Shown: positions 1,593-63,100 of the stretch, piece after piece
Numbering within the stretch: the first letter of the stretch is position 1
Layout: each line of letters begins with the position of its first letter
Source: Eremomyces bilateralis CBS 781.70
Lineage: Eukaryota
Length of the DNA stretch: 64,000 nt
Assembly: GCA_010015585.1 (NCBI GenBank)
Contig: ML975181.1
Reading direction: 5' to 3' (one strand)
Program-made: the position numbers and the translations under genes
The notes under the pieces: model-generated
Databases searched by the model: none
What the model was told of the DNA's origin: nothing
What the model saw: the letters and a program-made list of their open reading frames with translations, nothing else

Positions 1593-2998
1593 ATGGAGAA
1601 GTTCTCCCAATATCGGGATAGAGGTATTCGATGCCTTATTTCATCTTCTGTCCAGCAGACAGTGAACAAGCTTTGTGATAGTAGTACTAACCTTGGTATC
1701 TGCACCACAGGATCTGGAATCGCTCCATTCTTCCCCGTCACCACGAGTACTGCGGCACTTGCGTTACCGTTGCACATATTCCTGTTCACCATACGCATAC
1801 CCTTACTCCTGACCGTCGCACTGTCCTATTATCTCTTTTTTGGGTGGCTGCCGATACGCTCGCTTGGGAAGAAGGCCGCTCTATGGTTGATATTGGGGAT
1901 CCCGGGCATATGGTGGGTTGATTTGCAGATCGATGGGGTCAAACGAGGGTAAGTCTGGATTCCACAAGTCTTTCCGCCCTTTACAATACATCGTTCCGCC
2001 TGCCATATGTTTTGATAAGGTCTATTGTCGTCGGAGTAGGCCGTAGAGTTGCATGTATCCGCTTCATGGAACACAGATATCCCACTCGATCGTGCAACAT
2101 CCCACCCTCTCAACTTAGCGATGACATCTAGATTCGCGGTAAATGGCTCTTATCTTAATTAACCACCACTGACATCGTTTGCAGATCGCTAGCAAAACAA
2201 CATTTGAGCCGACTTCCTCACCCCGGAACCATCATCGCGTCCTCGTTCACCTCCCCGATTGACTCCTTATATCTTGCTGCCATCTTCGATCCGATCTTCA
2301 CGGTGTCCTACCCGAACACACCCCTTGTTCGGCCCGTGTCTCTCCTATCCTCCATACTCCGCGCCTTCCTCTCTCCACGTCTCTTACCGTCCGACAAAGA
2401 TGCAGCCGCCCTCATGACCCTGGCACAGCTCCGCGCCAAGCACCCCGACCGAATCATTGTAGTCTTACCAGAATGCACCACATCGAACGGCCGAGGCATC
2501 CTTGCTCTCTCTCCATCTCTAACGACGGCACCGGCGGGAACGAAGGTATTCCCCGTAAGCCTGCGGTACACCCCTCCCGACATCACGTCTCCTCTGCCCG
2601 GAATTCGATCCGGCATTGCCTGGCTCTGGCGGCTTTGCAGTCGCCCCACGCACTGTATACGCGTCCGCATCGGCGCGGCCATCGATCCCGCCGACATGCG
2701 GGCCGCCGTTTCTCCACGAGGCCTATCGTCCAGCTGGGTAGACGTCGCGGAAGAGACGTCGCCGGCACGTCGGTCTAGCGCCCAAGCGAAGCCAATGAAG
2801 GGTGATGTGGTGCCGCAAGTCAATGGCGACTCGGGCGAGCGGCTACTGGTCGGGCAAAGCGGGCTGTCCAAAGACCAGGAACGCTTCCTGGAGCGGGTAG
2901 GGGAGGATCTAGCGCGGTTGGGGAGGGTCAAGAGGGTTGGGCTTGGCGCGAAAGAGAAGGTGGATTTCTTGAGGTTATGGGAGAAACGGGGGCGATGA
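1593..2998 (+). CDS. LOA1: Lysophosphatidic acid:oleoyl-CoA acyltransferase (Vps66/Loa1 family)
   Basis: Family-typical start MEKFSQYRDRG-SGIAPFFP, a TM segment, ILGIPGIWWVDLQIDGVKRG, IIASSFTSPIDSLYLAAIFDP and LPECTTSNGRGIL. Exons 1593-1623, 1711-1948 and 2185-2998 with GT-AG introns. Confidence 0.9.
1995..2102 (+). ncRNA. Candidate intronic box H/ACA-like RNA in LOA1 intron 2
   Basis: Two hairpins: GCCTGC 1998-2003 / GTAGGC 2036-2041 and GTTGCATG 2048-2055 / CGTGCAAC 2091-2098, ending at ACA 2097-2099. The host intron is 236 nt, much longer than its neighbours. The H box is imperfect (AGAGTT). Confidence 0.3.
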
Positions 2999-3463
2999 GG
3001 CTTGTTGGGCTCGGGGGTATCATGATGACTGGAATGATTTACGGCTTTCTTAAGGTGGGCTCGGAGATGTTGGGCGAAGATAAGAAGGACGACATAGCGC
3101 GGGACGGAATCTGGGTCAGGAAGAGTTACATTGTCCCTTCACGGGGAGCTGGCTTATTTGTTTGGATGTCCTCTATCTACCTAGCATCGATAATGTAGTT
3201 TCGCCAAAACATTTCAGTGAATTTGTCTGCCCAAGTGGTCTCCTCACTATATCCTTATGCTGAATTGATAGTAGGAAACGTGCTACATCACACTGTACAT
3301 ACTCATCAAGCTATAAATGTAGACGACGAGCCCAAGAATCGCTAGAAAATACGGTCAATGACATCTACTTCATAACGACACCAGAGTGCCCATCCCACCA
3401 CAACACCAGGCGATCATCTTCGCACCAAAAGATCCGTCTCCCCATTAACTCCTCATCCCCCCT

Positions 3464-4786
3464 TCAGAAAATCTCCAACCCATCAAACCTCACCTTCAAC
3501 ATCCCCCCCCCATCTCTTTCCTCCCTCTCCTCCTCAAACAAACCCGATCCACCCATCCGCTCTGCCACGCTCGCCGGCCGACTCGCATACACCCCCACCC
3601 GAATCACCTTATCTTCCACCCCGAAGAAAAACCAGGTCACCTCCCGCAGCTTCACCCACTCGCCAGGGCGCGGGCCCGCACTGGGCGCATTCGATGGGTC
3701 GGAATCGCAATATGGCGTGGACGGTGCGGGGAGCGGCTGGTACCAGAGCCAGAGCGCGTCGCCGAGGCGCTCCATTTTGAGGCGGAGGGCAGCGGGGTGC
3801 GTGGGGCGGGGGATGTGGATGTATGGGGGAGCGTAAGGGGGGGAGGAAATTGGTCCGGGGGCGAAGTTGGTGGGTGATATGGCTCCGAGTGGTAGGTGGG
3901 GGAGGTAGGGGGGGGGGAGGGAGAGATCGGGAGTCAGGCCGGAAAGCGGCGGGGCGGAGGTCTCGTAACCGTCGTCGTGTCTACGACGCTCGGTTCTGCG
4001 GCGCTGGCGATGGGAACGTCGAGATGGCTCTGGATGTCGGACTGGGAGGCCGAGAGTTGGTACGGGTGAAGATACTGGCATTAAGGACGTCAAGGGCTGT
4101 AGTGGCACCGCGGGCGTCGCGGACATGGCCGGTCGCGTACTGTCAGGAAATGCCGGGCCGTTTTCAAATCGTCCTTGGCCGGGGAGCGTGGTGGCAGACC
4201 AGTCGGCGCCATCGGGGGTGGCGACGACAGCGGTCGCGTGAGGAGCATTGGAGGAGAGTTCCAGAGAGAGTTTGATCCATTTTGATGCGGGGACAGCGTG
4301 AGGGTACGGAGGGGGTGCTTGGACGTGATCAACAAGTTGATCTATCTGAAGAGTCGCTGAGTTCATCGAGTCAGGTGTCCTCGGTGGTGGAGTCCCACTG
4401 GTTGACAGTGGGGACGGAGAATCCGAGTCAATGGAAATAGCAGATACTAAGGATGACACATCGCGCTCTGTAGCCGGGATCGAAGGTACGATTACCGTTT
4501 CCACCCCTCCGGGTCGCTCTTCCCGTCCCGGAGGCGCCCCGGCGAAGATCACTAATCCTGCCTGATCCCACTCGAACTCCAGGTCAGCGCTCACCGTCAC
4601 CTCAGCAGATGTGAAACGGTGCCGAAGCGACGTGTACAGAATCGGTGCGGTGGAGGTGTCCCGGCAGGGCGGTTTCCGCCATAAATCGGTGTTTGGAGCT
4701 GCCGACAGGTCGAACGAGCCCATCCATTGCGGCACTGATTCCTGAGGGGTGTTCAAGGCTTTGAAGGAAGACCGGTCCGGAGGCAT
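3464..4786 (-). CDS. DUF1349 (Ree1-like, concanavalin-like fold) protein with long Pro/Ser-rich insertions
   Basis: Intronless 440 aa. Motifs FDLSAAPNTDLWRKPP, TAPILY, AEVTVSADLEFEWDQAGLVIF, KWIKLSLE, DGADWS and WVKLREVTWFF...IRVGVYASRP. Confidence 0.85.
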   Translation of the reverse strand: MPPDRSSFKALNTPQESVPQWMGSFDLSAAPNTDLWRKPPCRDTSTAPILYTSLRHRFTSAEVTVSADLEFEWDQAGLVIFAGAPPGREERPGGVETVIVPSIPATERDVSSLVSAISIDSDSPSPLSTSGTPPPRTPDSMNSATLQIDQLVDHVQAPPPYPHAVPASKWIKLSLELSSNAPHATAVVATPDGADWSATTLPGQGRFENGPAFPDSTRPAMSATPAVPLQPLTSLMPVSSPVPTLGLPVRHPEPSRRSHRQRRRTERRRHDDGYETSAPPLSGLTPDLSLPPPYLPHLPLGAISPTNFAPGPISSPPYAPPYIHIPRPTHPAALRLKMERLGDALWLWYQPLPAPSTPYCDSDPSNAPSAGPRPGEWVKLREVTWFFFGVEDKVIRVGVYASRPASVAERMGGSGLFEEEREERDGGGMLKVRFDGLEIF

Positions 4787-41772: not shown

Positions 41773-42470
41773 TCGACTGAAAGCTGATGTTTTGCTGCAG
41801 CAAGAGACTGGCCCCGGAACTTGGAATCCAAGTTGCTGAAGGGGCGTATCCGTATAGACATCAGTGGGATGGCAGGCGCAAACAATAATGGAATTCTGCT
41901 CATTACGGTACGAAGAAGACAGTCGAGGTTTGATGAACCTGGAAGGGCACTAAAGGAGGAAAGAATTCCGCGCCTAATGGTTTCTGACTTGGTGATATGT
42001 TTCCGATGCGATTTGAGGCAGAGTTCCGAATCGAGTTCCCACAGCAGAGCGCAAGATAGGGTTTTTTTAACGGTTAAGTAGCCAAGTACTTGGTTCATCG
42101 GTCTGGTTCTTCTTGAACAGTCTCCTAACGGTCTTTGAACGGTTGGTTAACTGGTCATAGACGGTCTTGCTATTTTCGACCGTTGTTGAAGGAAGGAAAG
42201 GCTACATAACGAGTGCAAAGAACAGGGTCTGCGCCCTGCTGCATCGTTGGCCTATTAATAGCTCTTATTAGGGAAGTCTCAAATTACAGCACGGCTGCCT
42301 GCCGTATTACCTGCCGTCTGACGACGATCCAGTCGATTCATAAATCGTTCAAATTGAAAGAAGATTCTCAAGACATTCCACACTCTGTTTCTTCCAGCAA
42401 ACTATTGCCAGATCTTGAGTCAAAGTTTTGCAGCTACCGGTATTCGCAATACAGCTTTCAAATTTCACTG

Positions 42471-44187: not shown

Positions 44188-44189
44188 AC

Positions 44190-44210
44190 TTTCTTTTTCA
44201 TCTTTTTTTG
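44190..44210 (+). terminator. RNA polymerase III oligo-T terminator of the tRNA
   Basis: TTTCTTTTT and TTTTTTT runs immediately after the tRNA 3' end. Confidence 0.75.
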
Positions 44211-44302
44211 TTTGCATTTCAATCAAACCTTTCACAATCAGCCAGGACTATGCGACGTATTAGGAGATTCAAAAGTGGGTTTATTCCGAAAGTATCTATA
44301 GA

Positions 44303-47030: not shown

Positions 47031-49742
47031 ATGACCGACAATCGACCGACCAGTGGGCGATCGGCTCCAGAACAAGCTCCGCAAACCCGCGATATACCGC
47101 CTAGCGATCAATCCGCTCAGGAACCAGGTCCGGAACGCGATAGACCACCCAGCGAGCGATCAGCTCAAGAACAAGATCCGCGACGCGATAGACCGCCCAG
47201 CGAGCGATTAGCTCAAGAACAACCAGATCTGCAACAACGCGATAGAGAGCGATCAGCTCTAGAACTAGATTCGCAATACTGCGATGGAGAGCAATCAGCT
47301 CAGGAACAAGACCCGCAACATGGCGATAGGCCGACCAGCGATCGATCAGGCCAAGAGCAAGACGCCCGACAACACAATACACTGTCCAGCGAGCGGCCAG
47401 CTCAAGACCAAGAACCGCAACACCGCGATAGACTAGCCTCGGAAGGAGAAAGAGCTGATTTAACTGCCTCCAATCCCTCCAAGGATGTCCGTCCACCAGA
47501 ACATGTCGAGCTCGGTGAACGTTCCGTCGATGTCCGTGAACTTTCCGCCGATCCAGCCCGCTGGACGCAGCTATCTCCCTTCCACCCAGAACGGTTGAGC
47601 CAGCCAACCAACCCGCATCAGATTTCCCAACAAGGTCCGCAACATAGACCGACCTCAGAAGGAGAAAGACCTGATCCAACTGCCTCGAATCTGGCCTCTA
47701 ATGATGTCCGTCCACCAGAACACGTTGGGCACCGTAAACCCTCCGCCGATCTAGGCCGGTGGACGCAGCCATCTCCCTTCCATCCAGACCCGTTGAGCCA
47801 GCCAACCAACCCGCATCAGTTTACCCAACAAGCACCTCCCGCCCGACAACAGAGTAGACACCTCCCGGAACCACTACCAGACCACTTTCGACCGGTCCTA
47901 CCGCCTCCCTTCCCAGCGTGCATGGGACTTCCATCTACCCCCAACTACAACCCCTTCAATCCTCCACCCAATACCGACTACTCTCTACCCAGTATCAACG
48001 TCCCCTTCAATCCTCCACCCAATATCAACTACCCTCCACCCGCCCCCGAAAGCCCTTTCGAGCATCGCTCAGCCAGCTCTTCAGCAGTCATCTCCCCTAC
48101 CTCGGCCGACCCCGACGAAATTGCCGGTTTCGTCCCCCGCCCCTTCAAGCCCCGCCGGCAAAAATACACACCCAAACCCCAACCCACGGGTTGGAGTCCC
48201 GTCCCTCAGTTTTGCTCCCTCCCACCGACCGCGCGGCCCGGCAATACCCGCCCCGGCCGAGTCACCATGTCAGGTCCGCCTATGACGGATACCGAGCCGC
48301 CCGTCAATCCACACCCCGGCCAAGACGACATGTCAGGCCCGCCTATGGCGGATACCGAGCCGCCCGTCAATCCACACCCCGGCCAAGCCGCCATGTCAGG
48401 TTCGTTTGTGCCGAATGCCCGACAGGGCCCGTCCAGACCCTCTCGGCGCGACGAGTTCACGAGACTGCGCGAGCAGCGGAGGATGGAACGGGTAGAGAAG
48501 CTGGGGACGACGGTCATAGCCTTGGAGAGCCGGTGGCGGAGGGAGCCGACTTTGCTGAGGGCTCCGAAGTTCGAATCGCTGGGGATGCCGATGGGCTTGG
48601 CGGTGAGGAGACAGTATGGGGAGTGGGTGACGGAGCACGACATAGAGCCAGTGACACGGAGATCGAGCGCGCTGCAAGTGATGGACATGGCGACTCTTTG
48701 GCTTGTGGCTATGGAGGAGGATAGGGAGAGGTTGACGGGTCAGAATATTCGGCTGGCGAAGGATAATTTGGTGTTGTGGAACTGGGTCATGGAGAAGGAA
48801 ATGGGGGCGACGGCGGCGGCGAGTGGTATGAGGAAGAGAAGAAGAACAGGAGAAGATAAAGAGGAGGGGGGAGTGGGGGTGGAAGAAGGAATTGAAGATG
48901 AGGTGGGGCTGGCGCTGGGACGACGGGAGACGGAGTCGGAAGCCGGAGGTGAAGAAGTCGTCCCACAACAGGCGGAGGGGAGTTGTAGAATGAAGAGAAG
49001 AAGGACAGGAGAGCATGAAGAGGAGGGGGGGGTGGGAGATGAAGAAGTAGTCGAAGAGGAGGACGAGTGCGAGGATAGGGAGCCTTGGTCAAAGGGGAAG
49101 GGGAGACGGGAAAGTACCAGATCAGGGGCAGGAAGAAGACGAACCGAGCAAGAAGTTGGGGTTGGCTTCGAGCAAGAAGCGGAGCTTGGATTCGAGCTGG
49201 AAGCGGAGCTTGGATTCGAGCTGGAAGCGGAGCTTGGATTCGAGCTGGAAGCGGAGGCTGGCTTCGAGCAGAACCTGGCGTCTGGTTTCGAGAAAGAAAT
49301 AGAGGTCCGTGTCGAGCAAGAAGTAGAGGTTGGTGTCCAACAAGAAGCGGAGGTTAGCGTCGAGCAAGAAGAGAAGGAGGTTGAGTACGAGTACGAATCG
49401 GTTGACTTCGACGAATTTGGCGAGGAGAATTATCATGACAGGGAAATCCGAGAATGGCACGGATATCTTGAGAATGAGCTCCCACAGAAGGTCGCGTTAC
49501 TCAATAGGGAACCTTCGTCAAAGGGGAAGGGGAGGCGGGAAAGTAACAGATCAGAAGGAGGAAAACGACGAACCGAGCAAGAACAGGAGGTTCCAGTCGA
49601 GCAGGAAGAGGGGGATTATAATGACAGAGAAATCCGAGAATGGCACGAATATCTTGAGAATGAGCTCCCACGGAAGGTCGCGTTTCTCAAGGAAAACTCC
49701 CCCCTACCACAATATCAGAATTTACCAGGTTACCGGTATTAG
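47031..49742 (+). CDS. Intronless 903-aa low-complexity orphan protein built from internal duplications
   Basis: 2.7 kb uninterrupted ORF whose repeat units keep the reading frame. Q/E/R-rich repeats, Pro-rich middle, a central helical/coiled-coil stretch (~aa 470-590) and a Glu-rich C-terminus. Confidence 0.75.
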   Translation: MTDNRPTSGRSAPEQAPQTRDIPPSDQSAQEPGPERDRPPSERSAQEQDPRRDRPPSERLAQEQPDLQQRDRERSALELDSQYCDGEQSAQEQDPQHGDRPTSDRSGQEQDARQHNTLSSERPAQDQEPQHRDRLASEGERADLTASNPSKDVRPPEHVELGERSVDVRELSADPARWTQLSPFHPERLSQPTNPHQISQQGPQHRPTSEGERPDPTASNLASNDVRPPEHVGHRKPSADLGRWTQPSPFHPDPLSQPTNPHQFTQQAPPARQQSRHLPEPLPDHFRPVLPPPFPACMGLPSTPNYNPFNPPPNTDYSLPSINVPFNPPPNINYPPPAPESPFEHRSASSSAVISPTSADPDEIAGFVPRPFKPRRQKYTPKPQPTGWSPVPQFCSLPPTARPGNTRPGRVTMSGPPMTDTEPPVNPHPGQDDMSGPPMADTEPPVNPHPGQAAMSGSFVPNARQGPSRPSRRDEFTRLREQRRMERVEKLGTTVIALESRWRREPTLLRAPKFESLGMPMGLAVRRQYGEWVTEHDIEPVTRRSSALQVMDMATLWLVAMEEDRERLTGQNIRLAKDNLVLWNWVMEKEMGATAAASGMRKRRRTGEDKEEGGVGVEEGIEDEVGLALGRRETESEAGGEEVVPQQAEGSCRMKRRRTGEHEEEGGVGDEEVVEEEDECEDREPWSKGKGRRESTRSGAGRRRTEQEVGVGFEQEAELGFELEAELGFELEAELGFELEAEAGFEQNLASGFEKEIEVRVEQEVEVGVQQEAEVSVEQEEKEVEYEYESVDFDEFGEENYHDREIREWHGYLENELPQKVALLNREPSSKGKGRRESNRSEGGKRRTEQEQEVPVEQEEGDYNDREIREWHEYLENELPRKVAFLKENSPLPQYQNLPGYRY
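48267..48404 (+). repeat. 63-bp tandem duplication (MSGPPM.DTEPPVNPHPGQ) x2 plus a partial third unit
   Basis: Near-identical units start at 48267 and 48330; a third start (ATGTCAGGT) is at 48393. Confidence 0.9.
49176..49271 (+). repeat. 24-bp coding minisatellite GAAGCGGAGCTTGGATTCGAGCTG (EAELGFEL)
   Basis: Three identical units at 49176, 49200 and 49224, one diverged unit at 49248, and more degenerate 8-aa units flanking. Confidence 0.92.
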
Positions 49743-50379
49743 CTGGTTAATGCGGATTTAGCATATTCGACTTGGCTGCGGCACGAGAATCATTATCAAT
49801 CCCTACGAGCGGTTCCGCTGGAGAGCAGCACGGAACGGCCGTACCGACAGCAGTGCGACGGATACAAGTATCAACATTGCTAAGTAACCATGATTTCCTT
49901 TCAGCGTTTGATTTCTTTCTAAATTGCAGTCACTCTCTTTGATCAAGCAATTGGCTCTCCTGGCTTCCGTTTCGTATTGCCCAGCATTTAACAGCAAAAC
50001 TATATTATTCTACATTCTCCAAGGCCGCGTTCGTTCCATCTCTTGAGCGTTCAGTTACATCCGTGGATCTGGCTGGTTTGTGTGTACGTTAGGATGGATA
50101 CAAGGACAGTAGTAGTCCGGTTGGTGGAAGATACTTATCATTGGCGAGGTAGGTTATCGTTAATGAGCAAGGTGAGGGATGGGAAGCTGGCCGACGAGAG
50201 GAATAGAATAGACACGAGCTGGATCCGAAAATAAAAATCTTCCGGTCAATGACCGAAATCCCAGATTGCATTTTGCAAGTGATCTATAACATCCACGACG
50301 ACAAAAGAACCTGTCCGTGTCCTTCTATCGCGCACAACCTAACCGAAAACCATCATCTCTCCTAATCCACCGCGACTCA

Positions 50380-52965
50380 TCACCCACCACTCCCCTCCCC
50401 CCCTCGCTCCGCCGCCCGCCAATTACTCACCTCCGTCTCCACGCTCTCAAACATCTCCCGCGCATCCTGAACCACCCCCTCCTCCCCGGGATTGAACATC
50501 ACCGCGTTCACCAACATCCGCACCAGCTCCCGCTCCAGCTGCGCCGAGTTGACGATCGCCTTTGGTGGCACCACCTCCGCACTCAACGGCAACACGACGC
50601 TGGCGCTCCCGCTCCCGGCCGCGGCCGGCGTGCCGGGGCTCGCTGCCGCGCCGATCCCGGAATCCGCTTGCGACGACGCCGCGGCCGCGACGGTGCGTGC
50701 GCCCGCCGTGATGGCGGCGCGGATGCTCTTGAGGTCGGTGGGGCGGTGGATCATGTCGTAGTAGCCTTCGGCGTCTTTGGCCTTGACGGGGTGGGCGAAC
50801 AGCGACGCGTGCTTGTGCGAGGTGATGGTCTGCATGACGGGGTTGCTGACGCGGGAGAAGTTGCGGGTGGCGAGGACGAACTGCGGGCGGACGCCGGTGC
50901 CGGGCGCGGCGGTGGGCGTGGAGCTGCGCCGGGCGTCGGTGGCTTCGGAGGTGGAGCGGACGCTGCGTTTGCGTTTGGGTGGGGCGGGGCGCTGGGTGGT
51001 GGCGAGGGTGCCGCGTCGGCGGCGAGTGCTGATGCCGGTGGTGGGAGTGTGCTCAATGGTGGAGCGGATATCTTCGCTGACTTCGGCGGGGGTGCTGGGC
51101 TCAGGTTTGATGGGGCGGCCGAAGCTGGATTCGGCGTCGATGGATATGTCGTCGGCTTGGGAGACGATCGATTGGCTGCGGGTGCGGCCTCGGAGGGAGC
51201 TACCGACGGCAGAAGATGCTGCGCTTCCGCGCCTGCGTGGTCTTCCCATGGTCCTTCGTGTTTGACGAGGTTCGGGCTCGGTGAACACAGCCTTTTGGTC
51301 TTCCGTTTGCTTCGGGGTTGGTTGTGTACGCGTTGGTTTGCCTCGTCGAGACCGTGGGGGTGGAGAGGGCGCTCTCTCGCTGATAGGACTCATATGTCGG
51401 GGTCGTTTGGGCATGTGGGCGTCAGTGCTTCCTGCTGGCAAACCATTTACCGTCTGTGCAGTCTTGGCCGCCTTCATGATCCTCGATGGTGGAGTGTCCC
51501 GAAGCCATCCGATGATCGTATTCGATAACTGAGGTGGGACGATTGGCGTGGCCACTGGAGTCGGTGGTTTCGTAACCTGAGGGACGGGTGCCTGGTTCGG
51601 CGGAGATGTTGCGCCAGGTGGTCCAACTGGTGCACCTGGTACCTGCTGAGATTGTGGCTGTGTGCCTGCTCCTAGGTTGACCTGGAATGGGGGGAGCATG
51701 TAACCTCCTTGAAGATTGTGCTGATAGTTCGACACGTAAGGGACCGTCTGAGGGGACTTCTGGGGGTTCGGTGGAGGTTGCTGGGGCCATGCATTTGGGT
51801 GGATAGGTGCAGCTTTTTGAGCAGGACTAACGGCATACTCGGGAGAGACGGGAGGCCGGGCACTAGGCTGCGGAATCGGAGGAGTTCCGGAGCCCATATA
51901 TGCCGTGATTTTGGCCGGGTCCGGACTCGGCCCAGGCGATGTTTGAGCGGTAGACCTGCTCGGAGGGGATGGAGCCACGCCGGCTGGTGTTCGAGGTAAT
52001 TGCGATACCAAGGCCGGAGATCCTCCAGTCGTAGGGTTCTGAGCATATTCAGGAACGGTTCCAGAGGTCGGCGGTTGTTGATGTGGAAGTGATGGTGTCG
52101 TAGAGGGGCTAGGCTGTGTCGGAGTTGCTTCTTCAGGCCTATGAACGTCTGTAATCGTCGGAGACGGCGCGTTGATTGAAGGGATCTGGCCAGGCTGACC
52201 GGCCTGAGGTCGAACATCGCTAGGTTTCTCAGTGGGCGGCTGTTTCAGAGGAGCCGTTTGGGGACCTGGGGACAGACCAGGAACAGTGAATGGCTGCTCC
52301 TGTACGTCTTTTGAAATGTCCGGACCCAATCCTGCCTTTGGAGTCTCGGATGGAGCCTTAGGACCCGTTTTGGCTCCAGTTGGTGCTGGTGAATGGCCGT
52401 TTTCCACGGGCTTGATACCGTTTACGACTCCTTCTCTACCTAAGAACCCTTTCCATTCCCCTTCCTCAATCTCCCGTCGCAATCGCTCATCCCACTCTCC
52501 CTTCTGGATCTCCTGGAGCTCTTTTTGCAACCGCGTGTAGGCTCGTTCCTGATCGCGGATTTCGCGGATGGCATATTGTCGGTATCGCGTGTACAACTTC
52601 GTGATCAATTGCGGAATAAGATGCGCCGCTTGACTCGCTTCCTGCGCGCTCGGGAGGGACGGACTGGGTGCTTTCCGTTTCCTCGATGGGGATGGACCAT
52701 CTGGACGAAGGCTATCGTTTTCATTCGCGGAGGGATGTTGCAGATCGCTCTGGATCTCCTCCTTCAGCAGACGAGAGTACAGGTCTCGAAGCGCATCGGC
52801 GCTGAGTCTTCCGGTGTCGAAGGTCGCGGCATTCTTGATAAGCGGGTTGGATTGCAGCAGGCCGGAAACTCGATCGAAGCTCGCATGGTCGACGCCGTAG
52901 GACGACAGATACTGGAAGAGCAAAAAGGACTCGAGCGGGGAGTACGAGGTGAGGTTAGTGGTCAT
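50380..52965 (-). CDS. Bromodomain-containing protein (BRD8-like, probable NuA4/SWR-associated)
   Basis: Likely start MTTNLTSYSPLESFLLFQYL at 52965 (the ORF is open to 53061), LITKLYTRYRQYAIREIRDQE coiled coil and a Pro/Gln-rich middle. C-terminal bromodomain HKHASLFAHPVKAKDAEGYYDMIHRPTDLKSIR...IVNSAQLERELVRMLVNAVMFNP. Confidence 0.88.
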   Translation of the reverse strand: MTTNLTSYSPLESFLLFQYLSSYGVDHASFDRVSGLLQSNPLIKNAATFDTGRLSADALRDLYSRLLKEEIQSDLQHPSANENDSLRPDGPSPSRKRKAPSPSLPSAQEASQAAHLIPQLITKLYTRYRQYAIREIRDQERAYTRLQKELQEIQKGEWDERLRREIEEGEWKGFLGREGVVNGIKPVENGHSPAPTGAKTGPKAPSETPKAGLGPDISKDVQEQPFTVPGLSPGPQTAPLKQPPTEKPSDVRPQAGQPGQIPSINAPSPTITDVHRPEEATPTQPSPSTTPSLPHQQPPTSGTVPEYAQNPTTGGSPALVSQLPRTPAGVAPSPPSRSTAQTSPGPSPDPAKITAYMGSGTPPIPQPSARPPVSPEYAVSPAQKAAPIHPNAWPQQPPPNPQKSPQTVPYVSNYQHNLQGGYMLPPFQVNLGAGTQPQSQQVPGAPVGPPGATSPPNQAPVPQVTKPPTPVATPIVPPQLSNTIIGWLRDTPPSRIMKAAKTAQTVNGLPAGSTDAHMPKRPRHMSPISERAPSPPPRSRRGKPTRTQPTPKQTEDQKAVFTEPEPRQTRRTMGRPRRRGSAASSAVGSSLRGRTRSQSIVSQADDISIDAESSFGRPIKPEPSTPAEVSEDIRSTIEHTPTTGISTRRRRGTLATTQRPAPPKRKRSVRSTSEATDARRSSTPTAAPGTGVRPQFVLATRNFSRVSNPVMQTITSHKHASLFAHPVKAKDAEGYYDMIHRPTDLKSIRAAITAGARTVAAAASSQADSGIGAAASPGTPAAAGSGSASVVLPLSAEVVPPKAIVNSAQLERELVRMLVNAVMFNPGEEGVVQDAREMFESVETEVSNWRAAERGGEGSGG

Positions 52966-54169
52966 CACCTTGCGATGGAAGAGCTGCTGCTGCCGTCCCG
53001 ATGGGAGGATGGGCGACGACGGCGGTAGATGGGGTTGGGGGAGAAGCAACAGAGAAGCCACGATGGAGGACGGGTCTCATGATAGCACGAGAACTTGGGA
53101 GCGGAGGGATTCCCTCACACCATTTGATGGACTGATGGTGATGATGCGCGATCGGAGTGGTCGAGATGTGGAGGGATCCACGGGAGGGAAAAGCGATGAA
53201 GGGAGATAATATGGAGGTGGAGGGGTTTGTAAAATTGATGGAGGCGATGATTTTCGAGATGGACTTGATTGAGAATTGAAGATTTGAGGTGGATGGGTTG
53301 ATAGGTTGATGAGTTGAGAGGTGTGAGATGTTGAATGTTGAATGGTGGATGGTGGAAAGTCGATGAATGGTGGATGGGGTTTGCGACCGCCGACCGTAGC
53401 CCGTAGGAGCCTGACTGCCTGAGATTTTGGGAGGCGTTCGGGGGGGGGGCAGACCGGGGGGTGCCGCCTATGATCGGCGCTCAATACAGGGGGTCCCTTT
53501 TCAGTCCTCACACTTCTCGCCAGATCATCACTGGATCACTGCTCAAATGTTCAGATAATATTATTTAGGCTGAAATATTCTTGAACGATAATAATTCCTT
53601 GGTGTTCTTTTTCATTCATCAGATGCATCATGCAGTACCTCTCACATGCCGGCTCCGTGCCTGCCCAGTGACCCATCCTAGTGTTACTCATTTGTACTGA
53701 GATATAATGATATATAAATCTGTAGCCAGACATGAATCTCAACTTGAACCAGATGACTCCCATGCAATTGGAACACGGCCTCAGCTGTTCAGAAATCATC
53801 ATCAATCCAACGTCGATCATTTGGGACCGAGAAACGGCTCCCCGTACCGTCCTTAGTGTCACACTCCCCCCCACACCTTGACCCTTTCCCTCGTGCCTCC
53901 ATCATCATCCCGAATCTCGACTTCTCCTGACCCTTTCCCATGAACAATTTCAAATCCCCCAAACACTACAAGAATCCCATCATCTACTCTAATATCCCTT
54001 TTCCATTGTCCATCGATATCATTTCTGAGCAAGCGCGCAGAACCAATCCTTAAGCTTCGGATTGTCCGTTCTCAGGAGAGCGTGAAACGTCCCCGACTGT
54101 TGCTTTGACTACTTCCTCCTCCCCTTTCCCGTTTGATATATTGCATAATCCCACCCCCCCACCCCAACC

Positions 54170-54844
54170 ATGACCGAACCCAAAGACCCCGAAGGCTGGC
54201 AACAAGTCCAAGAAGCCCAACCCGAGAAGTACTCCCGCCACCCTCTCCCCTCCTCTCCTCAGCTAGCTAACCCTCCCCAGCCTCGGCGCGGCCCTCGACG
54301 ACATCTTCAAAATGGACACCGGCCTCGACAGTCTCTCCCGCAACGTCGACAACAAGTAACCCATCCCCGGACCTCCCCCTGCCCTGCTCCCGTGTTTATT
54401 GTGCAATACCAGAAACTTACATGTCCACCCTCTCATAGACGCCGCTCCGTCACCTTCCAGAGCCGCGAGCTCGAAGCCCTCGAGGCGCAACTGCGCGCCG
54501 CGGAAGAGCGGTTGCAGAAGGCAGGTTTGGGCCCCTCGTCCGCCTCACCGCCCGCGCGACCTGTCGCAAGGGAAATACAGGCGCAGATTCTACAACGACC
54601 GGAGACGGTATCGGAGGAGGAAGAGGAGGAGGAGTCGAGTGAGGAGGAAGTCGGGAAGCCGGTCAGGAGAGACGAGGCCGAGAGTGAGGAAGAGGAAGAG
54701 AGCGAGGAAGAGGACGAAAGCGAGGAGGACGAATCGGAGAGCGACGATGAGCACGCGCCCGTCACCTCCCGGGTACCGCTTCGCAAACCCCCGGCGCAAC
54801 CACACAGTCTGTCCACCCCGTCCACCGAGCAACGCGTTTGTTGA
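54170..54844 (+). CDS. Small fungal coiled-coil protein with an acidic tract
   Basis: Three exons via GTACTC..CTAAC..CAG and GTAACC..TAG introns give MTEPKDPEGWQQVQEAQPEN-LGAALDDIFKMDTGLDSLSRNVDNK-RRSVTFQSRELEALEAQLRAAEERL, then an E/S-rich tract. Confidence 0.75.
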   Translation: MTEPKDPEGWQQVQEAQPEKYSRHPLPSSPQLANPPQPRRGPRRHLQNGHRPRQSLPQRRQQVTHPRTSPCPAPVFIVQYQKLTCPPSHRRRSVTFQSRELEALEAQLRAAEERLQKAGLGPSSASPPARPVAREIQAQILQRPETVSEEEEEEESSEEEVGKPVRRDEAESEEEEESEEEDESEEDESESDDEHAPVTSRVPLRKPPAQPHSLSTPSTEQRVC

Positions 54845-56027
54845 CTGACGCGCTAGAGACCTCGTCCACCGTGAGCAGCGAGTTCGAGCTGGTTGATGCG
54901 CCGCATGCGCGCGAGAACGGGAAGAACACGAAGTCTCCGGGCTGAGGATACGGGGGAGGATGCGAGCTGGGGGGATGGGGTTCGGACCGGTCGTTCTTGA
55001 ATCACTGCTGATGCGTGCGGTGGGTCGCGGGAATGGGTGTCGACGCTGCGTGGGTGCATTGCGATGCTGTTGGGAGTTCCCTGGTGGAATTACTGCTGCT
55101 AGGTCGACACGGACAGGCTACATAGGTACAGACATACAGATATGCTTCGGTTCTTCGACATTGTTTGATCACTAACCACATGTAATTTCTAATACCCGGC
55201 ATTCCATGCCTCTCCTTGTACACGTTCGGCTTCCTCCATTGCATTCGATCCATGAACACGGCGGCATGCTCTCGCCTCTAGGCACACCCATGCCACAACC
55301 TCGACAACGAAATGTCGGAATCCGCGTTTCTATATCGGCTCATGATATCCTCCTAGTAGGAGTCGAATTATCATCATCGGAAGCTTAATGCTTCAACCGA
55401 TGTCCCTCATGATGATTGGAGTCCAAACCTCCAGATACCAGGGATACCAGAAGATGAAAAAACCGGAACTGCCCGAGCTCGAATAACCCCCACAGCATTG
55501 ATATTACAAGGAATTTAATGAATGATGAGGCTCAACCGCTCAAGTTCTATCTCGCGGTTCTCGCCCAAAGCTTCCGTTGATGAACCAGGAGACTGGGATT
55601 GCGAGTTTTCGATTCCCTGCCGCTCCCGGCATCGAGGTAATTATGACGTAGAACCGTTTTATGTCAACTTTTGGACGTCCGATAAGGTAACGTTGAAACT
55701 TGGCCCAATAGGCCAATTAACGGATAGGAAATAAAGGGAGCATACATATCCGACTCTTCTCCGCAAGATCGGGCTAGGATAGAGAGCCGATGTCATCATT
55801 AGGAAGCATGTTGTAATTTGTATGGATGCGAGAAAGATCGCCATGAGCAGGACGGATATTTAGGATTGTTCCATATACAGCAAGAACGACTTTTATAATT
55901 CTACCGCAAGACTTTCCTATACACAACTCACACGAATCAAGATATTCTCCTAAATATCTTTTCTCCTCAACATCTTTTCTCCTCTGCGTATAACTTCATA
56001 TCCCAAGAGATTGAATCGACCATCACC

Positions 56028-57327
56028 ATGTCACAAGCCAAACCACCCCGCCCACCAGCGCCGTCAACGAAGATCGAACTCTTCTCCCCCACCTACTTCG
56101 CCGCATGCACAGTAGGAGGCATCATCGGTATATTATCCCACCTCATCTGGCCTTCTATCACAAGCTAACCCGCCCTGCCAGCATGCGGCCCAACCCACAC
56201 CGCGGTCACCCCTCTCGACGTCGTCAAAACCCGCCGCCAAGTCGACTCCTCCCTCTACAAATCCAACCTCCAAGGTTGGCGCACGATCTACCGCGGCGAA
56301 GGCCTCCGCGGCGTCTTCACCGGCTGGTCGCCCACGCTCGTCGGGTACTCGTTCCAAGGTGCCGGAAAATACGGGTTCTACGAGCTGTTCAAATACACGT
56401 ACGGCGAGCGATGGTTTCCGGGGGCGAATAAGACCGTGGTGTACCTCGCTGCATCGGCATCCGCGGAGGCGCTGGCGGATTTGGCGCTGTGTCCGTTAGA
56501 GATGGTGAAGGTGAGGATGCAGACGACGATTCCGCCGTTCGCGAGGAATATGCGGGAGGGGATGGGGAGGGTGATGCGGGAGGAGGGGGTGAGCGGGTGA
56601 GTGGGACGGGTTGATCGGCGTGAACGAGAAGCGGTGCTGATCGGAGTGAAGGTTTTATAAGGGGTTGTATCCGCTCTGGGGTCGGCAGATACCGTATACG
56701 ATGGTAAGATATGGTCCGCAAGACGATTTGACTCGGTGCTGATGGACTCGCCAGGTCAAATTCGCGACCTTCGAGAAGGCGGTGGAACGGATCTATAAGT
56801 TCCTCGGGAAGCCGAAGGAGTCGTTCAATAGCCTCCAGCAGACGGGGGTCTCGTTCGCTGGCGGATATATTGCTGGTATTGGATGCGCAGCCGTGTCGCA
56901 TCCGGCTGGTAAGTTCAGTCGCCGTGAAACATCGAGGATATTACTGATTCGTTTAGATGTGATGGTATCGAAGTTGAACTCCGACAGAAAAGGTGAGCGA
57001 ACACCTGAAATGGGTTAGCAGTGGTTACCGTACTGACATCGAAAAGCCGGCGAAGGCGCAGTCCAGGCCGTTTCAAGGATCTACAAGAACATAGGATTCC
57101 CAGGCTTGTGGAACGGACTCCCGGTCCGAATCGTCATGATCGGTGAGTATCCAGAGCGGAATATATACAGTCTGAGCTCCGCTGAACCGACAAAAGGAAC
57201 TCTGACCGCCTTCCAATGGCTGATATATGACTCGTTCAAAGTATATCTAGGGGTAAGCAACGTGAATCCTCGGATCCCATCATCCTAAGCTAATGTTTGC
57301 CAGCTTCCGACAACGGGAGGACACTGA
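56028..57327 (+). CDS. Mitochondrial phosphate carrier (SLC25A3 family, Pic2/Mir1-like)
   Basis: Eight exons give [92 protein letters not shown] and [25 protein letters not shown], with carrier PX[DE]XX[KR]-type signatures. Confidence 0.96.
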
Positions 57328-59993: not shown

Positions 59994-60152
59994 GGTTTAG
60001 ACGAATTTTAGACAATAATTAGAGGTTCATTTCTCATTCTACGATTAGGGGGCTCTGATACGAGTGCGTGGGTAAACTATGGTACATAGAATCAGTCTAG
60101 GATGACCTCAAGGGTGAGAACCAACTGATCCCATTCATCATCATTTAAGAAA

Positions 60153-63100
60153 TTATTCGGGGGCTAGCCCTGATTCCCGCGGACGGTGATGGCCAACCTT
60201 AAACTCCAACATATCTGCATGCCCGCCCCCAATCGCACTACTGTCTTTCTTCTGCTTCTTAGATAACTTTCGCTCACTCGCATCATCACCCTCCAACTTC
60301 ACTTTCGCGGACCTCCAACCCCTTCTCCCAAAAATCTGCTCGTTGATCGAAACGCGCGCCATCTGTCGCTCCCCAATCCCCTCCTCCGCCGTGACAGGCA
60401 GACACCTCGCGTTCTGAATCACCCCCCGCACCCCGTCGTCCTCCTCAATCCGCCTCGCGGTATCGTGCTCCTTCCTCGTCATCCGCTTCGCCCGCTCAAA
60501 CATCCCCTCTTCAATCGTGCCTTTGAGAATCAAGGTCTCCACGTGGACTTCACGGGTCTGCCCGATCCGATGAGCTCGCTTCACCGCCTGCGCCTCGATG
60601 CTGGGCCGGTTGCATGGGTTGATGAAGTAGACGCGGGAGGCCTTGTTGACGTTCAAGCCGAGCGCACCGCAGCGGATGTCCATGAGGAGAACGCGTATGG
60701 AGTCGTCGGTGTCGAATGCGACGATGTACTTGGACCGGAGCGCGGTGCGGAGCGTCTTGGCGTAGATGAGGTGGCGGATGTGGAAGATTTCGAGGCACTG
60801 CGCGAGGTAGAAGGCAGCGTTATCGCCGTCGTAGAAGATCAGGAGCTTTTCGTGGGGGGAGTGGAGGAGGATTTGTTCCATGAGGTAGGAGAGCTTGGAA
60901 GACGTGGTTCCGATGATGCGGGTGTTGGATAGAGGACAATCAGGCGGGAGAGTTGGCTCTTCCGTGGCGGAGTTAGATCGTTTGCGCGATGGGGTCTGTT
61001 TCTGGGCTTCGGTCGACAGATCGGACGCTCCGGCGCCCGTAGATGACCGTTTTCGAGGCTTTGAGGGGGGGCTGTTCTTTGGTGTGTACGCGTGATACTT
61101 CTTCGGTGAAGGTTGGCCGGCGCCGATGCTGGATTCAGGCACTCCCTTCAGCGTCATCTTCGATGATGTACTCCTATCTACCCCGTCGCCACCTGCAGCA
61201 TTCTCAGCATCGACCTGCGCGAGGGCAGCGACTCCAACTTCCGCAAGGCCCTCAGTCGGATCTGCATATGCCAGCCTTGAATTAATATATGCTTGGGCTA
61301 AAATAAGCTGTTGAGTCCCAGTAAAAAGCGGTAGAGTGCTTTCGCCTCTCATATCCCAGTGGCAACAGGAATGTGCTGGCCAATTGTCCAAGAATATTCC
61401 CATCTCGTGGCTGTTGCTAAGAGCTTTCCAACCGGGGGATTCAAGCAGAATCGTCGCGAATTGCATGCATTCTTTGAGAAGAACTCGATCCTCTTCGCTA
61501 CACATCGTATTCTCCTTCGCCAAGTATTTCTCGCCATTCGCAAGGGCATCGCGCACATTCTCCTCGGTGAAACCGGTCCAGAAGAAATTGCTTTGTCGAA
61601 GATTTGAGATCAGGGTGTGGCGTGGTTTCGCACTATCCTTATGGAACAAATAATCCCGATCTGTTCGCTCACTCGTCACAGCGTTCGTTGCTAGGACGAG
61701 TGTAAACAGATTCGCGGTCAACTTGTCGTAGAAAGACGGCTCGAGATAGACGACTTTGTGCTTCAGTGGTGGAAGTTGAATATCTCTCTCGACGTCTTCA
61801 AGCCGCGTCTTGATCACGAGTGACTCTAACGTCCGATGCATACACGACGCAAAGCCACTGTACGTCTTCTTTGTTCGATCTTCGTGCACGAAGACGTGGT
61901 CAACCCAGTCCACCTTCGGCACCCCGGATTTCCGAGCCCATGGTTGAGCTTGTAAGAAATGGGAGACAAGGAGTCCGAGGCTGACCGCGGCACCATTCTT
62001 CTCTTCCTGTGAATTGAAACGCTTTCTCATGGCCAGAGCCCGTTCACGCCGAGACGCGTGGATGGAAAAATTGTCTGACAGAATGAGCGGCGAGCCACTG
62101 TTCCCAGATGTAGAGTCCTGTAAAGGGAGTTGGTACGGCTTCTCATCGTCGCATTCATCGTCGATCGCGAGATCAACCTCGACTCCGAAGAGGCGGTCTC
62201 TTGCGGGCGTTCCGCTAACAACCCATCGCCTTTCAGCTGTGACTAACTCGCTTGCCACTTTGACAGCATTTGAAGTGCGAGAGGAAAATTGGTGTCCTTC
62301 GTCAACGATCAATCGGAGGAAATGCAGGTCCTTCAACGGGCTCTCGTAGATTCCCTCTTTTTTTATGCATGTACAATTCTTTCTTCTTGTTGCGCCCATG
62401 TATTGGCAATAACATAATTTAGGAACAGTGCCTCGATAAAACCGTCTGCCAGCTGCATCCGAGCCGTCGGAGATCTCCATCTCAAATCGTTTTCGGCTTA
62501 TTAGAAGTATGTCATATTTCGAAAGCTCATCGGAACTTGGAAGCTTCTGAGAATGGTCCTCGACAACTAACACTTCAAGATATAACTCATGGACGTGTTC
62601 GGAGATCTGAGCCTGCCATTGATGCATGAGGTTGGAAGGAACCACGATGATTGTGGCACTACACAAGCGCTTGACCCTCGGCGGCGGCGTTATTGTATAG
62701 CGATTCAAACGATAAGGAACCTGGGGAATGCTGTAAGTGGGCGGTATGGAATTAACCAGTTTTACGCAAGATTCAAATTCATTGCCGGTTTCTTGATGGA
62801 TCCGGTCGAGGTGAGCTCTTGCTGGAACTCCATGTCTGTTTGCTGAGGCTATCGCCATCTCAGCCAGGCTGCCTACTCTGGGTCGAATCCGCCGTGGGGT
62901 TTCGTACAGCGACGGAATCTGTGGAAGATGGTGCCTGGTGGCTAGAATGACCGCAAGACAAATGATCGATTTTCCGAGGCCCATCGTTTCAGCTAATATG
63001 CCGCCACGACAGCAGTCATAATACTGAGGATGTTTGAAGAATGACATGTCTCTCGGGCCATAGTAGTACTCTTGCCCCGTTGGACTTCGACGGGTTTCTA

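Follow-up and report, generated by a model that had tools for sequence, protein, structure and literature searches.

The 64,000-nt window of Eremomyces bilateralis CBS 781.70 studied here, by which we mean the whole stretch of contig ML975181.1 that was analysed, contains repeated patches in which a C-rich block is followed by a G-rich block, and analysis of this filamentous ascomycete sequence confirmed that these patches are real. They lie wholly within transcription units, read C-rich and then G-rich on the coding strand, and involve mainly silent positions. Very probably, these patches represent a gene-anchored, block-like extreme of the skew already published for fungal genes, and not recombination hotspots or replication origins.

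Skew jumps in GC-rich DNA

The main scan (W = 300, skew jump of at least 0.5) found 16 C-to-G and 15 G-to-C jumps in the 64-kb window when no GC filter was applied, and 15 C-to-G versus 0 G-to-C jumps when both flanks had a GC content of at least 0.55 (sign test, p = 6e-5). GC-rich DNA shows only the C-to-G direction because the return jumps fall in AT-richer intergenic DNA: 11 of the 15 G-to-C jumps are located outside coding sequence, between genes. When 300-bp blocks were randomly strand-flipped in place, a mean of 9.2 C-to-G and 7.2 G-to-C jumps was obtained, and none of the 200 trials reached either 15 C-to-G or 0 G-to-C jumps. The preference is not absolute, as 17 C-to-G versus 3 G-to-C jumps were counted with W = 150 (jump of at least 0.5, GC of at least 0.55). 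An independent sample was drawn from 36 environmental fungal contigs, using their flanks after removal of 1 kb to either side of the bait gene (178 kb in all); here, 10 C-to-G versus 1 G-to-C jumps were found at a GC content of at least 0.55.

A first-pass annotation of this DNA had named 12 switch points and had claimed that the order in GC-rich patches is C then G. The scan bears out this order, and all 12 points have negative GC skew to the left and positive skew to the right at W = 200 as well as at W = 400, with a flank GC of 0.51-0.77. For eleven of them, a scan peak with a jump of at least 0.6 lies no more than about 115 nt away; the exception, 22450, is weak and escapes the scan at W = 300 with a jump of at least 0.5. 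The scan adds one switch at the 0.6 level (45224) and weaker jumps at 8990, 27850, 32948 and 40495. That the pattern had been described as orientation-independent is uninformative, because a C-then-G order is left unchanged by reverse complementation. The patches stand out as islands by their high GC at third positions (GC3 of 0.75-0.95 versus 0.45-0.6 elsewhere), and each patch is GC-rich because of the local excess of one base. The units are listed in Table 1.

Table 1. C-rich-then-G-rich units in the 64,000-nt window of E. bilateralis, with their position in the modelled genes.
Unit	Coordinates	Strand	Details
3' unit, acyltransferase-like gene (terminal ORF 2159-2998)	2400..3238	+	C-block to ~2796, G-block to 240 nt past stop; switch 202 nt before stop
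3' unit, DUF1349 gene (3464-4840)	3238..4060	-	In gene direction, C-block 4060-3661, G-block 3661-3238; switch 197 nt before stop; 4-fold counts G2 C24, then G19 C1
Weak unit over NUDIX gene (Pfam match), claimed point 22450	22150..22750	-	Skew -0.30, then +0.29 at W = 200
Unit in truncated methyltransferase-like gene	28309..29131	-	G-block crosses premature TAG 28532-28534
3' unit, RAI16-like gene	33452..34643	-	Switch 33973, 486 nt before stop; 4-fold counts G1 C36, then G17 C1
5' unit, RAI16-like gene (two units in that gene)	35661..36560	-	Switch 36140, 414 nt after ATG, within conserved domain
Unit spanning small spliced gene (ATG 41236, stop 41888)	40853..41900	+	Switch 41482; RNA contig with two introns
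5' unit, Old-Yellow-Enzyme-type gene	44941..45631	-	Switch 45224, 254 nt after ATG
Mid-gene unit, 903-aa gene without Pfam match	47850..49742	+	Switch 48444, 1298 nt to stop; G-rich run reaches stop
3' unit, bromodomain gene	50237..51330	-	Switch ~50620, 240 nt before stop; 4-fold counts G0 C28 A2 T3, then G21 C9 A3 T0
Unit spanning small acidic-protein gene (ATG 54170, stop 54945)	54000..55169	+	C-block holds two C-rich introns
5' unit, mitochondrial phosphate carrier gene	55875..56720	+	Switch 56339, 311 nt after ATG; G-block crosses G-rich intron
3' unit, SNF2-family gene	60192..61133	-	Switch 60596, 443 nt before stop

Position of the units in genes

Gene models were built in this analysis; they have RNA-contig support only in the 41-61 kb region, and some 5' ends are uncertain. 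All 16 C-to-G jumps fall in modelled coding sequence, whose share of the window is 49% (p = 1e-5), and 15 of the 16 lie at most 490 nt from a coding-sequence end, where 10.7 would be expected (P = 0.005). The patches had been claimed to be independent of transcript position, which these counts do not support. Position within the transcript explains the pattern largely, though not fully; the other outcomes that the first-pass annotation had named as speaking against its own reading, i.e., jumps in both directions alike within GC-rich patches, loss of the signal at 4-fold and intronic sites, or a full explanation by amino-acid composition, were not found. In gene coordinates every unit reads C then G from 5' to 3', with a unit length of 0.7-1.4 kb and about 0.4 kb for each skew block. 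Most units occupy the 3' end of the gene; here, the switch is located 140-490 nt ahead of the stop codon, and the G-block extends into the 3'UTR. Five 5' units were found, in which the C-block begins upstream of the ATG and the switch follows 250-415 nt past it. A counter-case to end anchoring is the strong unit at 48444, 1.3 kb from either coding-sequence end and the sole unit far from such an end. Among the modelled genes of the window, the carboxylesterase, BBE and velvet genes as well as a low-complexity gene (8108-9346) have no unit.

The 3' signal is also visible in an unselected metagene of 17 modelled genes, in which the 4-fold skew was taken by distance from the stop codon. It amounts to +0.32 in the last 150 nt, +0.12 at 150-300 nt and -0.15 at 300-450 nt, followed by -0.25 (450-600 nt), -0.25 (600-750 nt) and -0.35 (750-900 nt). 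Upstream of that it is weak and of mixed sign, with +0.15 at 900-1200 nt and -0.08 at 1200-1800 nt. The 4-fold GC content is highest over the final 750 nt (0.67-0.70) and drops to 0.61 at 750-900 nt and to 0.54-0.59 at 900-1800 nt. G exceeds C at 4-fold sites in 13 of the 17 genes when the 150 nt directly ahead of the stop codon are considered. The 5' signal is weaker than that at the 3' end: the 4-fold skew rises from -0.26 to +0.12, the first value being that of 13 genes over the first 150 nt past the ATG (C in excess in nine, G in three).

Composition of silent sites, introns and untranslated regions

Composition was pooled over 10 units and compared at 4-fold sites with the background (n = 607 for the C-block, n = 479 for the G-block, n = 3368 for the background). 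The C-block has A.120, C.667, G.137 and T.076, the G-block A.077, C.152, G.676 and T.094, and the background A.219, C.298, G.266 and T.218. Once reverse-complemented, the C-block composition matches that of the G-block (chi-square p = 0.53), and the 4-fold sites are first pyrimidine-rich (74% C+T) and then purine-rich (75% A+G). Two-fold codons shift only where the favored base is synonymous. In the C-block, 80% of NNY codons end with C and 43% of NNR codons (39/90) with G, versus 55% and 54% in the background; in the G-block, 85% of NNR codons end with G and 55% of NNY codons (81/147) with C, versus a background of 54% and 55%, respectively.

Introns carry the local skew as well. The Spearman correlation with the skew around them is rho = 0.74 (p = 0.01) for the 11 RNA-supported introns and rho = 0.41 (p = 0.057) for all 22. 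Their GC content inside units is 0.54-0.67, which is below the 4-fold GC of about 0.8, versus 0.38-0.56 in other introns; the latter set includes two predicted introns of the RAI16-like gene (GC of 0.53 and 0.56) that lie between the two units of that gene. The first 100 nt past the stop codon are G-skewed in 13 of 18 genes. In the truncated methyltransferase-like gene the skew runs across the premature stop, which lies in a conserved methyltransferase motif, and the solved chain 3ssm_A aligns across this stop (E = 1.2e-5). It is supported, as the first-pass annotation had proposed, that the skew is not due to protein selection, as it is strongest at 4-fold sites and is also present in introns, 3'UTRs and a truncated gene.

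In other fungi, the skew returns in the corresponding part of a gene. Orthologs of the phosphate-carrier exon were compared from 64 environmental fungi, a non-redundant set with a median third-position identity of 0.45. Along the exon, the 4-fold skew of the 64 orthologs climbs from -0.64 to +0.19; it is higher in the second part of the exon in 50 of the 64, and the sign flips in 27 of the 64.

Possible causes of the units

The cause that we tentatively favor, as a possibility rather than a probable answer, is a strand-specific repair or mutation bias near both ends of the transcription unit. Such a bias would replace any base by G on one strand, which would be the coding strand for the G-block and the template strand for the C-block. 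A candidate process comes from yeast, where Rev1/Pol zeta place C across from abasic sites, an accumulation of R-loops raises the T>G changes that originate on the non-transcribed strand, and transcription-coupled repair acts on the transcribed strand, as far as the portion of that study used here goes (Owiti et al., 2018; PMC6063437). In E. bilateralis, abasic sites on an unrepaired or single-stranded strand might likewise be bypassed with insertion of C opposite to them; R-loops would raise this bypass on the non-transcribed strand, and transcription-coupled repair would clear the transcribed one. As a G-rich non-transcribed strand favors R-loops, the process could reinforce itself and give sharp blocks. 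A change of any base to G on the lesion strand, with a bias for the non-transcribed strand, matches the enrichment of one base in the G-block. However, the yeast data used here concern reporter genes in repair-deficient strains and not the shaping of a genome, and the process alone leaves the C-block unexplained (PMC6063437). A gain of G on the non-transcribed strand fits the G-block but not the C-block, because both are traversed by sense transcription; to account for the C-block, antisense transcription or another repair regime would have to be assumed. Moreover, selection for G or C as such yields a composition identical to that of a mutation bias.

A more specific version of the repair or mutation bias, which we consider rather unlikely, is that the units may be a readable footprint of strand-specific lesion bypass near the ends of transcription units. 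Abasic sites on a habitually single-stranded or unrepaired strand would be copied with C, possibly where the G-block lies in a sense R-loop and the C-block in an antisense one, and the exposed strand would drift to pure G, which favors still more R-loops. If this is true, the blocks would map sense and antisense R-loops in the fungal germ line, and the mirror relation of the 3' units to the 5' units would reflect antisense transcripts that begin at, or enter from, the 3' end.

The units could also be adaptive, which we likewise hold to be improbable. A G-rich coding strand at gene ends would be selected because the G-rich nascent RNA forms R-loops, by which RNA polymerase II is slowed ahead of the poly(A) site, and the C-block would do the same job for polymerases that enter antisense from a convergent neighbor. 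This would agree with the change from pyrimidine-rich to purine-rich 4-fold sites, and also with gene arrangement, since all 3' units with a skew step of at least 0.7 in genes >1 kb belong to convergent pairs (G3, G12, G18, and G23); G2 (step of 0.74, 582-nt model) and G10 (0.57) are convergent as well, and the stop-to-stop gaps are 160-640 nt. A skew step of at least 0.8 is present in four of eight convergent versus none of five tandem genes of at least 1 kb, a contrast that is not significant (MWU p = 0.22-0.24). In human, genes that lie close together show terminal GC skew, which forms R-loops and is linked to termination, according to the sections drawn on here (Ginno, 2013; PMC3787257). 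However, in the 5' units the G-block comes 250-800 nt into genes, a position at which it is hard to see what pausing would serve, and the G-block persists in the truncated gene.

The first-pass annotation had suggested as a cause recombination hotspots plus GC-biased gene conversion (gBGC), an explanation that we regard as very unlikely. Each switch would be a long-lived meiotic break site at which gBGC enriches GC and asymmetric resection or repair flips the skew. A raised rate of crossover or conversion would be expected there; only one run contains this DNA. Conversion tracts are on the scale of about 1 kb, as are the units, and the composition is mirror-symmetric about the center, with a raised intron GC inside the units. 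However, gBGC raises G and C alike at every AT/GC site. A drive of this kind was rejected, because a single base is enriched per block and the other two-fold codon class is at background: G at NNR codons of the C-block deviates from 0.80 with p = 2e-14, and C at NNY codons of the G-block from 0.85 with p = 6e-18. The two-fold codon classes contradict any generic AT-to-GC drive. Furthermore, the units are tied to coding-sequence ends, the trend is seen at the same gene region in 50/64 fungi with saturated silent sites, and we reason that damage to resected 3' tails should produce the opposite order, G then C, around a break. For Zymoseptoria, the part of the study considered here reports intragenic hotspots and high recombination in coding sequence, resembling our kilobase-scale GC-rich patches within genes, but describes gBGC as "extremely weak or absent" (Stukenbrock and Dutheil, 2018; PMC5844332).

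It is hardly credible that the C-block pairs with the G-block as a selected, functional long hairpin of the mRNA, a further cause that had been proposed. In minimum-energy folds, 140-231 of 196-271 pairs do join the two blocks, but shuffled sequences pair across the blocks just as much. For 6 of the 13 listed units, each compared with 20 within-block synonymous shuffles, the native folding energy is no lower than that of the shuffles (z = +0.24, -1.81, -0.64, -0.13, +0.73, and +1.33), codon shuffling over the whole unit alters the energy little (z from -2.9 to +1.5), and introns and UTRs share the skew. Selected fold-back is thereby largely refuted. Equally far-fetched are the replication initiation or termination sites that had also been proposed, translational codon selection, and amino-acid composition: bacterial origins and, on a scale of 100 kb, mammalian ones are marked by C-to-G jumps (cited in PMC3315797), but the 64 kb studied here hold 16 jumps, every one of them in coding sequence and with blocks of about 0.4 kb, which stands against replicon-arm domains of tens of kb; the preferred codons of fungi usually end with C, but G-ending codons make up 68% of G-block 4-fold codons and NNR codons of the C-block are not enriched in G; and against an effect of amino-acid composition, the signal peaks at 4-fold sites and is shared by introns and UTRs.

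Comparison with known systems

At the 3' ends, the positive GC skew of the coding, i.e., non-template, strand is like that of the human terminal element, for which R-loops and a link to termination are reported. However, human 5' skew is G-rich and therefore opposite in sign to that of E. bilateralis, and a preceding C-block is not part of the human element as presented in the sections we refer to (PMC3787257). A C-rich coding strand at the transcript start is shared with the C-over-G skew around transcription start sites of plants and some fungi (Fujimori et al., 2005; PMC555766), a report that, in the part relevant here, describes neither a subsequent G-block nor 3'-end units.

The closest known system is the skew of fungal genes, whose coding strand favors C at the 5' end and G at the 3' end (McLean and Tirosh, 2011; BMC Genomics 12:638, PMC3315797). 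According to the portion of that paper on which we rely, it is present at 4-fold sites, continues into UTRs, shifts amino-acid usage and occurs in many filamentous ascomycetes. The 5' C bias, the 3' G bias, the involvement of 4-fold sites and the extension into UTRs are the same here. However, McLean and Tirosh describe averaged, gradual ramps with a skew that correlates negatively with GC content, in contrast to the discrete units found here, in which at a GC3 of 0.75-0.95 a strong C-block directly precedes a G-block (PMC3315797). Going beyond the ramps as described there, some genes of E. bilateralis have a full C-then-G unit at the 5' end too, with two units in the RAI16-like gene, and the two blocks are mirror images of each other at 4-fold sites.

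The C-to-G asymmetry of GC-rich DNA

The C-to-G observation in the window is real. All twelve switch points listed in the first-pass annotation have an excess of C on their left and an excess of G on their right side, the point at 22450 being a weak one. An unbiased 300-bp scan for jumps of at least 0.5 in the skew (G-C)/(G+C) along the + strand gave 16 C-to-G and 15 G-to-C jumps, and the same scan restricted to jumps with a GC content of at least 0.55 in both flanks gave 15 C-to-G versus 0 G-to-C jumps (sign test p = 6e-5), which bears out the one-directional order reported for these patches. When 300-bp blocks were strand-flipped at random in place, the means were 9.2 C-to-G and 7.2 G-to-C jumps, and neither 15 C-to-G nor 0 G-to-C jumps were reached in any of 200 trials. 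With 150-bp windows the count was 17 to 3, so that the asymmetry, though strong, is not absolute. In 178 kb of flanks from 36 unrelated environmental fungal contigs there are 10 C-to-G jumps and one G-to-C jump.

Since the reverse complement of C-then-G is again C-then-G, a C-to-G feature that follows the transcript looks identical for genes on either strand, and the “orientation-independence” put forward in the first-pass annotation carries no weight as evidence. C-to-G switches along transcripts also turn all intergenic junctions, whether divergent, convergent or tandem, into G-to-C jumps. As intergenic DNA is richer in AT, only C-to-G jumps are seen in GC-rich DNA, which accounts for the central regularity.

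Gene content and gene models

The window belongs to a filamentous ascomycete and is gene-dense, with 52.6% GC, no CpG depletion, one tRNA gene and Pfam matches to velvet, squalene epoxidase, SNF2, bromodomain, RAI16-like, ZGRF1-N, carboxylesterase, BBE and NUDIX. The Pfam ORF scan covered the 150 ORFs of the first 25.8 kb, four of which had matches. One public run contains DNA of the window. Eleven short stretches with GT..AG or CT..AC ends are missing from its contigs, which shows that the run derives from spliced RNA. These contigs provide introns for the 41-61 kb stretch and carry no information on strand, transcript ends or expression level. Our gene models combine long ORFs, Pfam matches, RNA-contig introns and the output of a simple exon chainer, which was usable for some genes; a gene finder based on codon log-odds performed poorly, and the phosphate carrier gene, for which the chainer was unsuccessful, was modelled by eye. 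Modelled coding sequence amounts to 49% of the window, several 5' ends being uncertain. Single loci are compiled in the table.

Loci of the window with individual observations
Feature	Coordinates (strand)	Observation
Methyltransferase-like gene	28466-29131 (-)	Premature TAG at 28532-28534, within a motif conserved in solved macrolide O-methyltransferases
Patches with false reading frames	33400-34600, 35780-36520, 50290-51530 (both strands)	False long reading frames in GC-rich units, also in other patches; up to five overlapping ORFs of at least 150 codons per patch, a possible source of error in gene calling
Intron, RNA-supported	41555-41617 (+)	63 nt, in frame, no stop codon; retention adds 21 residues to a 177-aa protein
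Copia-type Pol beta-barrel ORF	42210-43295 (+)	Transposon relic covered by RNA contigs; spliced 60-nt GT..AG intron at 42539-42598; no skew unit
Introns with AAG 3' ends, RNA-supported (2 of 11)	44881-44940 (-), 57143-57196 (+)	AAG instead of CAG/TAG
Gene without Pfam match	46986-49742 (+)	Transcribed, 903 aa; sole mid-gene unit, strong (switch 48444), followed by a 1.3-kb G-rich run up to the stop
Phosphate carrier G-block	56340-56594 (+)	Residues rare or absent in 64 orthologues, with G-rich or G-ending codons (e.g., A107M, V131M, N121R, L77W, A132R); rare changes to Met, Arg, Gly, Trp
Introns with AAG 3' ends, predicted (phosphate carrier)	56597-56651, 56993-57046 (+)	AAG likewise
Carboxylesterase/SNF2 convergent ends	59993-60153	Stop codons 160 nt apart; RNA contig over the SNF2 3' end begins at 60025

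The stop spacing and the contig start indicate that the 3'UTRs of carboxylesterase and SNF2 probably overlap.

Position of the units within genes

Every one of the 16 C-to-G jumps falls within modelled coding sequence (p = 1e-5), and 11 of the 15 G-to-C jumps fall outside of it. Furthermore, 15 of the 16 C-to-G jumps are at most 490 nt away from an end of the coding sequence (expected 10.7, P = 0.005), as are four out of five in genes longer than 2 kb (P = 0.04). Independence of position within the gene, as proposed at first pass, is thus not supported, although the strong unit at 48444 lies in mid-gene. In seven gene models (G2, G3, G10, G12, G14, G18, G23) a 3' unit, i.e., a C-block followed by a G-block, switches 140-490 nt before the stop; in two weaker cases the distance to the stop is 71 nt and 15 nt. 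The 5' units, found in the RAI16-like, the OYE-type and the phosphate carrier gene and in two small genes, switch 246-414 nt after the ATG. Both classes are represented in the RAI16-like gene, with one unit each. No unit at all is present in the carboxylesterase, BBE and velvet genes and one low-complexity gene. The outer block, from the switch to the flanking G-to-C boundary, measures 358-629 nt in 11 of 12 cases, with 358-521 nt in nine of them and 629 nt in one more; over the small g54 gene its length is 712 nt.

The trend is also present in a metagene of all 17 modelled genes, for which units were not selected. Ordered by distance before the stop, the 4-fold skew is +0.32 (0-150 nt), +0.12 (150-300 nt), -0.15 (300-450 nt), -0.25 (450-600 nt), -0.25 (600-750 nt) and -0.35 (750-900 nt), and further upstream it is weak and of mixed sign (+0.15, -0.08). 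At 4-fold sites, GC amounts to 0.67-0.70 over the final 750 nt, 0.61 between 750 and 900 nt before the stop, and 0.54-0.59 from there to 1800 nt.

Composition of the two blocks

The patches stand out as islands by their high GC at third positions (GC3 0.75-0.95 versus 0.45-0.6 elsewhere), and within them codons ending in C give way to codons ending in G. The 4-fold counts along the bromodomain gene are G0 C28 A2 T3, then G4 C32 A0 T0, then G21 C9 A3 T0, and those of the RAI16-like gene G1 C36 A1 T1, then G17 C1 A1 T2.

Composition of 4-fold sites, pooled over 10 units
Class	A	C	G	T	n
C-block	.120	.667	.137	.076	607
G-block	.077	.152	.676	.094	479
Background	.219	.298	.266	.218	3368

In composition, the G-block mirrors the C-block as its reverse complement (homogeneity p = 0.53 mirrored, p = 5e-81 unmirrored). 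In each block one base gains and the three others are all depleted; T is not raised, which rules out a signature of cytosine deamination. Two-fold codons of C-blocks end in C in 80% of NNY and in G in 43% of NNR, and those of G-blocks in G in 85% of NNR and in C in 55% of NNY, compared to a background of 55% C (NNY) and 54% G (NNR); unaffected and affected classes differ with p < 1e-13. The enrichment is therefore limited to one base on one strand, which is the sole reason why the patches are GC-rich.

Codon positions 1 and 2 follow the skew more weakly than silent sites, and disordered protein parts shift from Pro/Ser/Thr-rich to Gly/Glu/Arg-rich along the unit, for example in the tail of the RAI16-like protein. 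Skew pressure thus appears to push amino-acid composition as well. Compared to the orthologue consensus, the summed G-minus-C change of the phosphate carrier at codon positions 1-2 is 0 over the 11 differences of the C-block and +5 over the 21 differences of the G-block.

Skew outside coding sites

In the 11 introns with RNA support the skew correlates with that of the flanks (rho 0.74, p = 0.01), the value for all 22 introns being rho 0.41 (p = 0.057), in a comparison in which two coordinates are off by 1-3 nt. Introns inside units have a GC content of 0.54-0.67 versus 0.38-0.56 for the others, and two predicted introns of the RAI16-like gene (GC 0.53 and 0.56) sit between its two units. The phosphate carrier intron inside the G-block is itself G-rich and lacks a pyrimidine tract. 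Downstream of the stop, the first 100 nt are skewed to G in 13 of 18 genes. In the methyltransferase-like gene the G-block passes through the premature TAG, across which a solved homologue aligns and past which it extends by ~100 residues; the read-through had no match in Pfam and was matched in the solved-structure search. The methyltransferase-like gene is probably truncated or a pseudogene. Since the skew is present beyond coding sites, protein selection is not its cause, as the first-pass annotation had concluded. A restart of the skew at introns was rejected for the window, downstream skew being lower than upstream skew in only 3 of the 11 RNA-supported introns, and anchoring on exon ends is unsupported, as the phosphate carrier G-block crosses an intron into the next exon.

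Phosphate carrier orthologues in other fungi

Eighty environmental orthologues of the phosphate carrier exon were fetched, of which 64 are non-redundant. Their median third-position identity is 0.45, which means that silent sites are saturated. The 4-fold skew of the orthologues climbs along the exon, from -0.64 up to +0.19. Of the 64, 50 have a higher skew in the second part of the exon, 27 show a sign change and 13 have a strong unit. The position of the change point varies, with a median near exon codon 96 in the orthologues versus ~52 in the window. Recurrence of the trend at saturated silent sites indicates a widespread process that is still ongoing and is linked to the gene region.

Possible causes

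The units could be adaptive elements for R-loop formation or termination, and among genes longer than 1 kb all 3' units with a skew step of at least 0.7 are found in convergent pairs. However, the contrast between convergent and tandem genes is not significant, and we regard an adaptive element as improbable. GC-biased gene conversion is a general drive from AT to GC and should increase both G and C in all classes of sites. The two-fold classes of the non-favored base stay unenriched (NNR 43% G in C-blocks, NNY 55% C in G-blocks), so that conversion at recombination hotspots is not supported; in Zymoseptoria, for which intragenic hotspots are reported, such conversion is described as weak or absent (PMC5844332). 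Translational selection was rejected as well: 4-fold sites are 68% G in G-blocks and there is no G preference at NNR in C-blocks. Selected fold-back of the mRNA, another early suggestion, is not supported either, because the native energy of six units is no lower than that of 20 within-block synonymous shuffles (z -1.81 to +1.33), which pair the two blocks equally well. Local replication origins are unsupported, with 16 jumps per 64 kb, all in coding sequence, and skew blocks of ~0.4 kb each.

Taken together, the mirror spectrum, the two-fold codon test and the shuffles leave as candidates strand-specific processes that are linked to the ends of transcripts. The mechanism that we favor, though at less than even odds, is a strand-specific substitution bias, for which Rev1-type bypass would be a candidate. 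Any base would then be changed to G on one strand, which would be the coding strand close to the transcript end and the template strand in the preceding block; at 5' ends the two blocks have the same order along the transcript. According to PMC6063437, Rev1/Pol zeta of yeast put C opposite abasic sites, changes that originate on the non-transcribed strand are transcription-dependent and increase with R-loop accumulation, and transcription-coupled repair clears the transcribed strand. This abasic-site bypass is thus a documented process with the same spectrum as the proposed any-base-to-G bias. A G-rich non-transcribed strand favors R-loops (Ginno 2013, PMC3787257), and therefore feedback could sharpen the blocks. 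The weak point of Rev1-type bypass is the C-block, which would need antisense transcription or another repair regime.

Relation to known skew

Silent sites of ordinary housekeeping genes are pushed here to 67-90% of one base over several hundred bases, which is one of the strongest biases in local composition known from nuclear genes. In practice, such blocks give rise to false reading frames on both strands, with many overlapping ORFs in the patches, and will bias inferences from codon usage, dN/dS and GC3 in fungal genomes. No description of the mirror spectrum or of paired blocks was found in the literature searched, the supplementary figures S1-S3 of PMC3315797 (skew by codon position) being outside this scope, and nothing further on block-like skew in filamentous fungi, or on its mechanism in papers citing McLean and Tirosh, was found there.

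The pattern of the window is the intragenic skew of McLean and Tirosh (2011, PMC3315797) in a strong variant. That study of Aspergillus, Neurospora, Fusarium and other filamentous fungi describes a C bias at 5' and a G bias at 3' ends of genes, an effect at 4-fold sites and a reach into the UTRs. Compared to the skew described there, which takes the form of ramps, the window has discrete GC3-rich units, a full unit at some 5' ends and two blocks that are mirror images of each other in composition.
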